From a virus (lineage: Duplodnaviria; Heunggongvirae; Uroviricota; Caudoviricetes), in the IMG/VR virus record IMGVR_UViG_2939152649_000004, positions 1 to 7,776 of that record: a stretch of DNA of 7,776 nucleotides; one strand, written 5' to 3'. A model generated the notes under the pieces. It was not told the DNA's origin and did not search any database. It saw only the letters and a program-made list of their open reading frames with translations. Below are positions 1 through 4,642 of the stretch, in pieces. Each line of letters starts with the position of its first letter. The stretch's first letter is position 1. The position numbers and the translations under genes are program-made.

Positions 1-276
1 TTACCGACTGCGGCCTGAGTTTTTTAAGTGACGTAAAATCGTGTTGAGGCCAACGCCCATAATGCGGGCTGTTGCCCGGCATCCAACGCCATTCATGGCC
101 ATATCAATGATTTTCTGGTGCGTACCGGGTTGAGAAGCGGTGTAAGTGAACTGCAGTTGCCATGTTTTACGGCAGTGAGAGCAGAGATAGCGCTGATGTC
201 CGGCGGTGCTTTTGCCGTTACGCACCACCCCGTCAGTAGCTGAACAGGAGGGACAGCTGATAGAAACAGAAGCCAC
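1..276 (-). CDS. insA: IS1 InsA (transposition regulator, zinc-finger/HTH protein)
   Basis: 91-aa [46 protein letters not shown]...LKNSGRSR, recognised as canonical IS1 InsA. CxxC...CxxC zinc-finger motif is present. Confidence 0.93.
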
Positions 277-308
277 TGGAGCACCTCAAAAACACCATCA
301 TACACTAA

Positions 309-331
309 ATCAGTAAGTTGGCAGCATCACC
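309..331. repeat. IS1 terminal inverted repeat (left end); IS1/flank junction at 331|332
   Basis: Sequence atcagtaagttggcagcatcacc is the reverse complement of the IS1 end GGTGATGCTGCCAACTTACTGAT. Only one IS end is in the window, so no target-site duplication can be assessed. Confidence 0.8.
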
Positions 332-1814: not shown

Positions 1815-3031
1815 TATGCAAGCCTCACAATATAGTTAAATGCGATGTTTTTGACGGTGTTTTCCGCGTTACCAGCAGCGTTAACGGTGATGGTGTGTCC
1901 ATGTGAGCCAATCGCAACCGAGTGCGTATGAGCACCAATACCCACAGTATGTGCGTGTGCACCTGCGCTTGCAGCAGTACCCGATACAGAGTGCGTATGA
2001 GCGCCTGCAGAAGAAGTGTTAACACTGTATTTAGAATAATCAGATGCTCCACTTCCCGGAGCACCACTGGAACCACCTGAAACAAATGTCATCGAATGGG
2101 TATGTGCACCGGCTGAAGCAGCCGTACCGCTAACACTATGGGTATGCGCACCAGTGTTATTCGTGGATTTAGTGCCGTAATCAAACGACGATGTGGTTTT
2201 CGTCCCCAAATCCGTACTGGATGCGCTGGCGCTGTGGGTGTGCGATTTAATGCCGTCCTGTTCCTGAGACAATACGGCCCGACCACTGGCGGGCTTGCCC
2301 TTAATCATCCAGCCACGCATATCAGGGATCACGCCTGACGGATAAGCCGCTGCAAGTTTCGGGTAAGCAGATTTGTCAAAAGTCTGCCCCTGCATCAGGG
2401 CATAACCAGACGGAACGGTATCCGATGGCCACGGGATTGGTGCGCCAGGCGGATAAAACTGCTCTGATGGCGTATAGAGTGAATAAACTGTACCGTCCGT
2501 TAACCCTTCCGGCTTATTAGCAGAATATGCTGGTGACGTATGAATCGTTACGCTGGCATTACTGGTATAATCCCATTGAATATTTACACCAGTCGCATAA
2601 TTTCCGATTGCAACGTAAATATCGTAAGTATCACCAGATGTATTGACCCAGGCAAAATTTGTAAACCCTGCCGATGTGCGCTGCCATAAAGCACCAGTAA
2701 TCCCCTTCGGATTACCATTACCTGCACGCAAAACAAGTTCAGATATACCTGCCTGTTGAGGTGAACCGACGTTATATCCAGCCCCACCAATCAACGTAAT
2801 TGAAACAACAGAACTCGCCTGCGGCATGGTTACCGTTGCTAATTTGAACCAACCAGCACCACCGCTGAATGACATAGTTGTTGAGTTAAGCGTACCAATA
2901 TCTTTCGGTGTCAGTGTTATATCCGCTGAAAGCGCCTTACCATTCACCTTACGGGCAGAAGGTACCCGAAATCCCCTGAAAGCACAGCGGCTGGCTGAGG
3001 AGATAAATAATAAACGGGGAGCTGTATGCAC
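1814..3031 (-). CDS. stf: Side tail fibre protein Stf, C-terminal portion; probably a 5'-truncated remnant
   Basis: C-terminus ...[31 protein letters not shown] is recognised as lambda-type Stf. It contains the tail-fibre motif [17 protein letters not shown] and repeated GAHTHS His motifs. The ORF opens with a GTG and a basic, non-fibre-like ~30-aa leader, the frame closes at 3050..3052, and no tail genes lie upstream. Confidence 0.8.
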
Positions 3032-3217
3032 AAAGCATCTCCTGTTGAGTTAAGAACGAGCATTGAGATGGCACATAGCCTCGCTCAAATTGGAGTCAGG
3101 TTTGTGCCAATACCAGTAGAAACAGACGAAGAATTTCATACGTTAGCCGCATCCCTTTCACAAAAGCTGGAAATGATGGTGGCGAAAGCAGAAGCAGATG
3201 AGAGAGACCAGGTATGA
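3026..3217 (+). CDS. Small exo-xis-region protein, lambda Orf63-like (63 aa)
   Basis: 63-aa [70 protein letters not shown] lies 4 nt upstream of the ATG. Length and position relative to the TraR-like ORF and xis/int match lambda orf63; identity is by recollection, not alignment. Confidence 0.65.
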
Positions 3218-3293
3218 CAACCACTGAATGCATTTTTCTGGCAGCGGGCTTCATATTCTGTGTGCTTATGCTTGCCGACATGGGACTTGTTCA

Positions 3294-3509
3294 ATGACAC
3301 ATCAGCAGGAAAACGCCCTTCGCAGTATTGCCCGTCAGGCTAATTCTGAAATCAAAAAAGCCAGACAGCAGTTTCCGGATAAAAACGTCGATGACATTTG
3401 CCGTAGCGTACTTAAGAAGCACCGCGAAACGGTAACGCTGATGGGATTCACACCGACTCATTTAAGCCTGGCGATCGGCATGTTAAACGGCGTCTTTAAG
3501 GAACGGTGA
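3294..3509 (+). CDS. Small exo-xis-region protein in the position of lambda orf61 (71 aa from ATG 3294)
   Basis: The ORF track gives 3228..3509, but the internal ATG at 3294 overlaps the stop of an upstream micro-ORF (ATGA-type coupling) and yields MTHQQENALRSIARQANSEIKKARQQFPDKNVDD... Same strand and operon as the orf63-like and TraR-like ORFs. Confidence 0.55.
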   Translation: MTHQQENALRSIARQANSEIKKARQQFPDKNVDDICRSVLKKHRETVTLMGFTPTHLSLAIGMLNGVFKER

Positions 3510-3607
3510 ACATGAAAAGCAAAATCATCAGGGAGCTACAGGTTCCTTTTTTATTGTTCGCATTCATCCTCAAGCGTATTAACCAACAATTCAGGGATTA
3601 ATGGAAG

Positions 3608-3829
3608 ATGGCAGACATCATTGATTCAGCATCAGAAATCGAAGAATTACAGCGCAACACAGCAATAAAAATGCGCCGCCTGAACCACCAGGCTATATCT
3701 GCCACTCATTGTTGTGAGTGTGGCGATCCGATAGATGAACGAAGACGCCTGGTCGTTCAGGGTTGTCGGACTTGTGCAAGTTGCCAGGAGGATCTGGAGC
3801 TTATCAGTAAACAGAGAGGTTCGAAGTGA
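3608..3829 (+). CDS. TraR/DksA-family C4 zinc-finger protein (lambda Orf73-like)
   Basis: 73-aa ORF with CCECG...(17 aa)...CRTCASC, i.e. a CxxC-N17-CxxC zinc ribbon at the C-terminus typical of TraR-like proteins. Length matches lambda orf73 and it sits upstream of xis/int on the same strand. Confidence 0.8.
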   Translation: MADIIDSASEIEELQRNTAIKMRRLNHQAISATHCCECGDPIDERRRLVVQGCRTCASCQEDLELISKQRGSK

Positions 3830-3980
3830 GCGAAATTAACTAGAAGCCAAAGATAAAATCATCGCTGAGCAGGAGAAAATCGCTAACGGAGAAAAGACAG
3901 TAAGTCAGTATATGAAAACCGCATGATATCATCAGATAAAAATCGGTCGTAAAGCGAAATATTAATACCAGAACAAACGA

Positions 3981-4006
3981 GTCGAGGTAAATTATATTAC
4001 CTCGAT
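3981..4006 (-). terminator. Hairpin between the convergent TraR-like gene and the membrane-protein gene; candidate terminator
   Basis: Perfect 8-bp stem cgaggtaa/ttacctcg (3983..3990 with 3997..4004) around loop attata, extendable by a t-a pair and a g.t wobble. The minus-strand side downstream is moderately U-rich. It lies about 35 nt past the stop of the 4040..4642 ORF. Confidence 0.35.
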
Positions 4007-4039
4007 AAATTAACTAAAACTTGCCCGCTATATACTATA

Positions 4040-4642
4040 TCATTCAGTATCATCACGCGCGGTCTGTGCATATGTCACTACCGCACCTAATATATTAATT
4101 TTCTTTTCAACATAGATAATATTATCGTACTCATAATTGCCATACGGATAGCAAATGCGAATATTCTCATGTAGATCGGGGTCATCCACCTCAGCTCCAG
4201 AACAACTTTTTGAACTACCGGAAGTATACCGATACGGTGCAACATAAGACGATGTCTCTCCAGGCAAAAAATAAGTTAGTGTCGTAAGGGGTATAATCAG
4301 AAAAAATCCTGCAAATATGCACATCCCTGCATAAACCTTAAGGTATGCTGACAGACTCTTCCAGCCTCTTTGTTTTACTATCCCCTTCTTAACCCAAAAC
4401 AGAGATAATAGAAAAGCTATTCCCATGCTAAACAGAATGTAATAGTGGGATATACTCTGATTAAGAAACGTGACCCTGTAGATATCTGCCCGCCACCAGA
4501 AGAAAAGGAAAATAAAGATCAGCCCTGAAACTGTCATGCAAATCAAATAAGGATACGAATCTTTTTTCATGTTTAGCGCCCATAAAATTTTTCCTGACCC
4601 GGACAAATTTACCATCCATTTTTTGCGCAGAAAATAGCTCAT
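4040..4642 (-). CDS. Hypothetical integral membrane protein (prophage cargo gene; about 3 TM helices plus a ~70-aa C-terminal domain); start uncertain
   Basis: 200-aa ORF with hydrophobic segments LICMTVSGLIFIFLFFWW, YYILFSMGIAFLLSLFWV and MCIFAGFFLIIPLTTLTYFL, then a hydrophilic Cys/Tyr-containing tail (...CSGAEVDDPDLHENIRICYPYGNYEYDNIIYVEKK...). AT-rich and opposite in orientation to the surrounding operon. Alternative starts at codon 10 or codon 25 (MKKDSYPYL, ATG at 4568..4570). Confidence 0.65.
   Translation of the reverse strand: MSYFLRKKWMVNLSGSGKILWALNMKKDSYPYLICMTVSGLIFIFLFFWWRADIYRVTFLNQSISHYYILFSMGIAFLLSLFWVKKGIVKQRGWKSLSAYLKVYAGMCIFAGFFLIIPLTTLTYFLPGETSSYVAPYRYTSGSSKSCSGAEVDDPDLHENIRICYPYGNYEYDNIIYVEKKINILGAVVTYAQTARDDTE

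Follow-up and report, generated by a model that had tools for sequence, protein, structure and literature searches.

The locus examined here raises the question whether two very short open reading frames (ORFs), wedged between known phage genes, are genes in their own right. It lies in a 7,776-nucleotide (nt) stretch of viral DNA (Caudoviricetes, IMG/VR record IMGVR_UViG_2939152649_000004), which was analyzed as a whole and is called the window below. Judged by its sequence, the part from 2966 to 3829 comes from a remnant of a lambda/434-like prophage, of which it forms the conserved early exo-xis block, with 97.4-97.8% DNA identity to lambda and 434 in the alignment. The genes follow one another along the plus strand as orf63, a 27-amino-acid ORF (m27), orf61, a 29- or 31-amino-acid ORF (m29/31) and orf73 (Table 1). 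The initial annotation had described five consecutive plus-strand ORFs, packed with start/stop overlaps, as an operon of small genes from a lambdoid exo-xis region; every coordinate in it was right, and the description, with the tight coupling that it implies, was borne out by gene content, gene order and the ATGA junctions. We consider it probable, from the comparisons given below, that m27 is a genuine, coupled gene for a membrane peptide and that m29/31 has mainly a cis role around the terminator-like hairpin t2.

The start codon of m27 overlaps the TGA of orf63 as ATGA, and its own TGA overlaps the ATG of orf61 (3294) in the same way. Its Shine-Dalgarno sequence was calculated at -5.6 kcal/mol, with a spacer of 6. 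About 200 loci were gathered from IMG/VR, GTDB and phage records, and 116 distinct sequences (haplotypes) of the region 3020-3835 were aligned; each distinct codon variant was counted once in the selection test. Among all variants, the m27 frame contained 15 synonymous (S) and 11 non-synonymous (N) changes, corresponding to a ratio of non-synonymous to synonymous rates (dN/dS) of ~0.23 (P = 2.4e-4), and the non-singleton variants comprised 9 S and 2 N (dN/dS ~0.07, P = 9e-5). Over the same bases, the frame of the long annotated form of orf61, which begins upstream of 3294, gave a dN/dS of ~0.97 with all variants and ~1.9 with non-singletons (S = 1, N = 6), and the two frames differed in a Fisher test (P = 0.013). 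The sense frames other than m27 gave ~1. The 71-amino-acid orf61 had a dN/dS of ~0.25 with all variants and ~0.11 with non-singletons, orf73 of ~0.28 and ~0.17, and orf63 of ~0.56 and ~0.47; the non-singleton constraint on m27 is thus as tight as that on orf61 and orf73. At site 3225 all four bases occur, every one of them synonymous for Thr4 of m27.

The m27 frame was 27 codons long in 94 of the 96 distinct contexts containing the region, the peptide was identical in 81 of these 94, and the ATGA at its start was found in every intact context. The conservation that the initial annotation had proposed as a check was therefore present for m27, both as a synonymous excess and as an intact frame. 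Frames broken in close relatives, the sign named there of a spurious ORF, amounted to one natural disruption (locus L007) in about 100 distinct contexts. Searches by tblastn found the peptide 100% identical in 138 of 176 phage records, in DNA of 95-99% identity, and no match among phages outside the E. coli lambdoids. The m27 DNA is present in 3143 of 5426 complete E. coli genomes, which places the peptide among the commonest unnamed prophage peptides of the species.

The product has the composition expected of a single-pass membrane peptide, as had been suggested initially. Its grand average of hydropathy (GRAVY) is 1.62 and its best 19-residue Kyte-Doolittle window reaches 2.33, the usual transmembrane threshold being ~1.6; it ranks in the top 0.6% for hydropathy among stop-free 27-mers from all six frames of the window, and its summed value on the Hessa scale is +0.3 kcal/mol. 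A single membrane helix is predicted at about residues 6-26. The peptide had also been called entirely hydrophobic, which goes too far, since the N-terminal MTTTE, D22 and Q27 are polar. It has a net charge of -2 with no basic residue, and it belongs to no Pfam, PHROG or NCBIfam family. No RNA structure signal was detected in the m27 region (z-score +1.4).

The mosaic structure of related loci also bears on the limits of m27. Thirteen contexts carry a phage N6-adenine methyltransferase gene (TIGR01712, 162 bits; at 867-1424 in L050, L038 and L083) in place of orf63 and keep m27. Position 3214 is exactly where their homology to the window begins, and the methyltransferase TGA overlaps the m27 ATG in the same ATGA, behind a GGAGG Shine-Dalgarno sequence. 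In ten other contexts (e.g. L187, L154 and L117), a 250-amino-acid gene replaces both orf63 and m27; it ends 8 nt before the orf61 ATG, and orf61 starts there at the ATG equivalent to 3294 with its own GAGG Shine-Dalgarno sequence. In L007 (Escherichia sp.), a 355-amino-acid gene with a DGQHR motif (371-1438) is located between orf60a and orf61, and orf73 is also degenerate. At two junctions, genes adjoining the m27 ATG as replacements use the ATGA overlap. The methyltransferase, 250-amino-acid and L007 junctions define gene boundaries at 3214 and 3294 and show m27 to be separable from orf61. Frame-specific selection, kept boundaries and frame conservation therefore argue that m27 is a coding gene.

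The second micro-ORF may start at ATG3512 (m29) or at an in-frame GTG3506 (m31), which overlaps the orf61 stop codon as (A/G)TGA and is an ATG in 47 of the 116 haplotypes, lambda included. The Shine-Dalgarno sequence of m31 was calculated at -6.1 kcal/mol and that of m29 at -8.0 kcal/mol, the strongest of the block, with -4.9 kcal/mol for orf73. An AGGA-type ribosome-binding site about 8 nt before the 29-amino-acid ORF had been proposed; the site itself was confirmed (AAGGA, 3497-3501), with a spacer of 10 nt and not 8. Conservation of this ORF had likewise been put up for checking, and it proved good for the frame, which is full length in 114 of the 116 haplotypes, and poor for the peptide, with dN/dS values of ~0.3-0.4 (all variants: S = 8, N = 12, ~0.37, P = 0.03; non-singletons: S = 4, N = 5, ~0.31, P = 0.08). 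Common non-synonymous alleles are S3N, R7M and T19I in the 29-residue numbering. The hydrophobic core spans only 10 residues and is thus not transmembrane-like, and the m29/31 peptide was found in no Pfam, PHROG or NCBIfam family.

Codons 7-15 of the 29-amino-acid ORF are covered by t2, a hairpin of an 8-pair stem and a 3-nt loop followed by six U, which is identical to the t2 predicted in Table 4 of PMC4195576. Its fold energy is -10.2 kcal/mol in lambda (z-score -3.7) and -7.8 kcal/mol in the window. Position 3543 is T in the window and C in 114 of the 115 other haplotypes; this change, C3543T, is unique to the window among the 116, puts a G-U pair in place of G-C in the t2 stem, which weakens the hairpin, and replaces Ala11 of m29 by Val. 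One non-singleton variable site falls within the 25 nt of hairpin and U-tract, compared with six in the next 47 nt. In lambda, the mRNA levels of orf73, ea22 and ea8.5 were lower than those of the upstream ORFs, and a promoter p1 was predicted at the same place as t2 (Bloch et al., 2014, PMC4195576). A consensus promoter scan of the window did not recover p1.

It is quite possible, although we lean slightly away from it, that m29/31 is an incidental frame across an RNA or DNA element (t2, possibly p1), its translation being noise and its peptide functionless. The near invariance of the hairpin and U-tract, wobble positions included, beside flanks with common non-synonymous alleles agrees with this, as do the dN/dS of 0.31-0.37 at P values of 0.03-0.08 and the lack of a match among the protein families searched. 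However, the frame is kept at full length in nearly all haplotypes and is open even where L007 is ~13% diverged, in its 3' half. No Shine-Dalgarno sequence of the block is stronger, the start overlaps the orf61 stop, and a 31-amino-acid ORF has been reported as translated in lambda. As cited in PMC8614690, ribosome profiling of lambda (Liu et al., 2013) added two genes to the block, orf2311 (7 amino acids) and orf2313 (31 amino acids); Orf73 is Orf2310 in the same numbering, as cited in PMC9239242. These lengths are shared by the ORFs 3506-3601 and 3601-3624 directly upstream of orf73. By length, position and numbering, as given in the citing papers, m29/31 is very probably lambda orf2313. It is therefore not new, being reported as translated in lambda, according to those citations, and annotated in several phage records. 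The 7-codon ORF, encoding MEDGRHH in the window and MKDGRHH in lambda, is present in 115 of the 116 haplotypes; its ATG, in TAATG, overlaps the m29 TAA, and its frame crosses the orf73 start. By length and position it is probably the orf2311 of the same citation.

On the reading that m27 is a membrane-peptide gene and m29/31 acts mainly in cis, the block would be transcribed from pL in the intact phage, and ribosomes would be handed from gene to gene, orf63 through orf73, by overlapping or abutting stop and start codons, with a coupling efficiency that we infer. Translation of m27 would most likely start by termination-reinitiation at the ATGA of the orf63 stop, helped by its moderate Shine-Dalgarno sequence, and termination at the second ATGA would pass ribosomes to orf61, whose Shine-Dalgarno sequence is weak. 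The peptide would insert in the inner membrane and may act there on a host membrane component, in early lytic development or in the lysis-lysogeny decision. As for m29/31, ribosomes moving across the hairpin would keep t2 masked and carry translation on to orf73; read-through to orf73 and the downstream genes would then hang on transcription-translation coupling, or on N antitermination. A more far-reaching version is doubtful as a whole. It supposes that an early gene so far undescribed, whose product is an inner-membrane peptide of 27 residues, lies under the mis-annotated 5' part of orf61 in lambda and Shiga toxin (Stx) phages, that its loss or lost coupling causes part or all of the published orf61 deletion and frameshift phenotypes (lysogenisation, induction timing, Φ24B adsorption), and that the 29/31-amino-acid ORF is a translation-sensitive t2 switch setting the level of Orf73.

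Several points weigh against a coupled membrane-peptide gene and a cis-acting second ORF. The coding status of m27 is argued from sequence comparison, and few events stand behind the selection test because the relatives are all E. coli lambdoids of 93-100% identity. An antisense frame shows a similar synonymous excess (dN/dS 0.15-0.32), its wobble positions being shared with m27. By bacterial ribosome profiling, m27 could not be told apart from the annotated orf61 that overlaps it. Since the peptide has no positively charged residue, its orientation in the membrane is undefined. Because ten contexts are without m27, orf61 can work in its absence, and a 14-nt deletion has brought the m27 ATG of L007 into the orf61 frame. 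The conservation of m29/31 is best explained at the RNA level, and in lambda the N-modified polymerase would ignore t2. In the window, pL is deleted and a consensus scan found no sigma-70-like promoter site upstream of orf63.

The explanation of m27 that survives best beside a membrane-peptide gene is that the ORF is translated merely as a ribosome relay coupling orf61 to orf63, with a functionless peptide. The ATGA at both ends and the weak Shine-Dalgarno sequence of orf61 (-3.9 kcal/mol) fit such a relay, as does the occurrence of orf61 without m27 where a good Shine-Dalgarno sequence of its own is present. A relay requires just an open frame, yet the amino acids of m27 are conserved, as seen in the identical peptides and the low number of non-singleton N changes; in addition, the composition is strongly transmembrane-like and the region is without an RNA structure signal. 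We regard the relay as improbable.

Less probable still is that the 27-amino-acid ORF is no gene and that orf61 starts upstream, at 3228 (93 amino acids) or in the 61-amino-acid lambda form, the region being conserved as the Orf61 N-terminus. Long forms of orf61 are used by many phage records and in phrog_303 and phrog_26061, and a 93-amino-acid product results in L007 from an ATG in the orf61 frame behind a GGAGG Shine-Dalgarno sequence. The latter is explained by the 14-nt deletion in a degenerate prophage. The long frame is neutral over the overlap, with a dN/dS of ~1-1.9, and ATG3228 is without a usable Shine-Dalgarno sequence (only -3.8 kcal/mol, spacer 13). The contexts with the 250-amino-acid gene start orf61 at the 71-amino-acid position, and the NCBI Prokaryotic Genome Annotation Pipeline (PGAP) also calls the 71-amino-acid form (WP_000188870.1). 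In an AlphaFold2 model of the 93-amino-acid form, the per-residue confidence (predicted local distance difference test) was low, 45-53, for residues 1-20 and was 74-91 for residues 21-90, a three-helix domain; published models of the 93-amino-acid Φ24B Orf61 were likewise inconsistent for residues 1-23, and lambda Orf61 was called truncated (Donaldson, PMC8614690). Orf61 matched phrog_303 at profile positions 23-93 (E = 1.3e-35) and is 97-100% identical to E. coli prophage proteins.

The lambda annotation of this region can be accounted for by two differences. RefSeq lambda has orf63 and a 61-amino-acid orf61 (30839..31024), then nothing annotated up to ea22. In laboratory lambda the A-run after 3353 is longer by one A, and a TGA is lost because 3225 is G and not T. 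The extra A frameshifts the true orf61 to a 29-amino-acid product. The annotated 61-amino-acid orf61 of lambda is a composite of 33 upstream codons, in the orf61 frame and not that of m27, the first 21 true codons and a frameshifted tail. Only five of the 116 distinct haplotypes carry the extra A, and those identified are lambda or lambda-derived records; the window has the intact 71-amino-acid form without this +1 frameshift. The annotated extensions of orf61 upstream of codon 23 (61 amino acids in lambda, 93 in Stx phages and PHROG 303) are, on this comparative evidence, non-coding annotation artefacts. What had been missed initially, and matters most here, is that m27 competes with the N-terminal extension annotated for orf61. 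According to the description in PMC6213356, the sequence of the annotated ORF was replaced in the Δorf61 mutants of lambda and Φ24B; if so, m27 should be lost too, and the orf61 phenotypes would be confounded.

Many Orf61 homologues bear the NCBI name 'cell division protein ZapA'. This name was not confirmed for Orf61, which scored 15.2 bits against PF05164 (cut-off 23.8) and whose AlphaFold2 model had no PDB match at E <= 0.001 in Foldseek. A comparison of Orf61 to a homeodomain was not confirmed by the Foldseek search either.

Scarcely credible, finally, is that the codon-periodic conservation of 3214-3297 comes from an antisense ORF at 3096-3281 (61 amino acids, minus strand) through shared wobble positions: although this ORF is open in 96 of the 100 haplotypes carrying orf63 and has a dN/dS of ~0.14-0.36 over the m27 part, it is neutral over the two-thirds overlapping orf63 (0.66-0.88), for which we rejected it as a typical shadow ORF. 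The methyltransferase-type contexts destroy it but leave m27 intact, the m27-synonymous change C3279T hits its start codon, and it runs opposite the pL transcript with no promoter found for it in the consensus scan.

Both micro-ORFs had been reported initially as unannotated, which holds for RefSeq lambda and for PGAP; on E. coli chromosomes PGAP calls orf63, the 71-amino-acid orf61 and the TraR gene and leaves both as gaps. It does not hold for GenBank and UniProt. By exact-sequence look-up, the 27-amino-acid peptide is a 'hypothetical protein' in a few GenBank genomes and UniProt A0A0A2SGE8, and occurs in 981 contigs; the 29/31-amino-acid peptide was found in phages 1H12, SfI and others, and its ORF is annotated in 434B, mEp332 and one lambda record (PV340536). 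In the exo-xis literature, as far as searchable, m27 does not appear, and neither peptide sequence was found in a full-text literature search or in the supplements of the Sakai small-gene study. The 27-amino-acid ORF is not listed among the lambda ribosome-profiling ORFs as cited in later papers.

Single-helix peptides of other systems offer comparisons for m27. Type I toxins and SOS peptides (Ibs, ShoB, DinQ, TisB, Hok) have 18-50 residues and one hydrophobic helix; DinQ is also 27 amino acids long, and Ibs peptides are also without charged C-termini. Unlike these, m27 is without its own promoter or structured leader, is ATGA-coupled in an operon and has a net charge of -2; no antisense RNA was detected (Rfam, E <= 1) and the scan found no promoter-like sites nearby. 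AcrZ, MgtS, KdpF, PmrR and Caulobacter SidA are single-helix peptides of <50 amino acids that bind a larger membrane protein. By analogy with such regulators, m27 would most likely act by binding a larger membrane protein, although it is phage-encoded, would be expressed early and has no sequence similarity to them.

For m29/31, the likeness is to pyrBI-type attenuation, since a 29-31-codon ORF spans a hairpin and U-tract and a close ribosome would block the hairpin. Unlike pyrBI, there is no U-rich pause site upstream of t2 (sequence AAAAGCAAAATCATC), and no U-run was found from the start codon to the hairpin (sequence ATGAAAAGCAAAATCATC). Moreover, m29/31 would be fed by coupling from orf61 and has no dedicated leader, and N antitermination overrides terminators in lambda.

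The exo-xis region affects the lysis-lysogeny decision and prophage induction, and hence Shiga-toxin production. If m27 is real, the gene map behind all exo-xis genetics is short of one gene and has another mis-drawn; laboratory lambda would combine an intact m27 with a frameshifted orf61, and lambda Δorf61 and Φ24B Δorf61 would each be a double mutant. The case also illustrates how a small gene can escape annotation pipelines and ribosome profiling alike when the ORF next to it is extended too far.

Table 1. Positions of the features in the exo-xis block of the window
Feature	Position	Strand	Basis or remark
3' remnant of orf60a	2966..3053	+	last ~29 codons; alignment with lambda and 434
orf63, DUF1382, 63 amino acids	3026..3217	+	PF07131, phrog_292
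m27, 27-amino-acid ORF, predicted single-pass membrane peptide	3214..3297	+	ATGA overlap at each end
orf61, 71-amino-acid form	3294..3509	+	phrog_303 residues 23-93
m29/31	3506..3601 from GTG (31 amino acids); 3512..3601 from ATG (29 amino acids)	+	ORF list
Intrinsic-terminator-like hairpin t2	3530..3554	+	stem 3530-3537/3541-3548, then U6; terminator scan
7-codon ORF, candidate lambda orf2311	3601..3624	+	read from sequence
orf73, TraR/DksA-type C4 zinc-finger protein, 73 amino acids	3608..3829	+	PF01258, phrog_54, TIGR02419

The genes flanking the micro-ORFs were identified by profile searches. The orf63 product scored 107.8 bits against PF07131 (cut-off 27) and matched phrog_292 (E = 3.6e-36); its gene has a GGGGAG Shine-Dalgarno sequence of -7.3 kcal/mol. 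In 10 distinct haplotypes the orf61 start codon is GTG through the change A3294G, which is synonymous in m27 (CAA to CAG). The orf73 ATG lies 6 nt past the m29 stop, and the product matched PF01258 (34.8 bits, cut-off 24.9), phrog_54 (E = 7.8e-25) and, slightly under the cut-off of 59.7, TIGR02419 (54.7 bits). The Orf73 of lambda is an RNA polymerase-binding protein that inhibits rRNA promoters (PMC9239242).

The exo-xis block of lambda and Stx phages (orf60a-orf63-orf61-orf73-ea22) has the same genes in the same order, with 97-98% DNA identity, and the window has the DUF1382 Orf63, the adjoining Orf61 homologue and the TraR-type Orf73 by which the block is recognized. It departs from the position between exo and xis under transcription from pL, being a deletion derivative, though xis and int lie downstream. 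Unlike in lambda and Stx phages, the block of the window is truncated in orf60a and fused to a tail-fibre gene, exo through pL is gone, and a 434-type membrane-protein gene on the other strand takes the place of ea22. The literature model of the block differs from the one proposed here in having no 27-amino-acid gene.

Homology to lambda and 434 begins at ~2966, inside orf60a. Leftward of ~2965, the minus strand carries a side tail-fibre gene, represented by its C-terminal part (1814-2965, with Pfam Collar and Phage_fiber matches), and a tail-fibre assembly gene; a GGDEF gene lies there too. Rightward of the block are the 434-type membrane-protein gene, xis, int and the host gene ybhC. The window thus looks like a lambdoid prophage at att-lambda with a single large internal deletion from orf60a to stf, pL included. 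The initial annotation missed this deletion, which by the gene map cuts the block off from pL. With pL deleted and no promoter-like site before orf63, 'operon' is a description of the ancestral phage. No complete E. coli genome had >66% of the window in one place. The junction at ~2965 is just downstream of where lambda has the predicted terminator t1.

The GTDB scan yielded 22 loci, ~13 of which were lambda sequence with the laboratory frameshift in unrelated genera and added no diversity. The GTDB contigs L010-L023, of ~48.4-48.5 kb or fragments, have the lambda block with this frameshift in Shewanella, Pseudomonas, Bradyrhizobium, Paenibacillus and other assemblies, and look like lambda control-DNA contamination. 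Three candidate distant relatives were rejected: P0070/L109 is an indel-ridden assembly, P0035/L110 has an insertion sequence (IS) element inside orf61, and P0019/L231 (76 amino acids) is an artefact of a deletion junction with host DNA. In L231 (1380-1560), orf61 from about codon 16, m29 and orf73 are joined to E. coli host sequence beside aroE, and the junction sequence resembles, by eye only, an rRNA-operon promoter region.

The left end of the window (1-330) matches an IS1-like element of E. coli chromosomes. The GGDEF diguanylate-cyclase gene (389-1156) has a partial MASE4 domain and is prophage cargo in related loci too, e.g. L050. No RNA family was detected in 2800-4100 (Rfam, E <= 1). 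Between orf73 and the convergent gene for a 200-amino-acid membrane protein (minus strand, 4040-4642) lies a 9-pair hairpin at 3982-4005, which scored as a terminator on the minus strand and is where the transcript of that gene may end.

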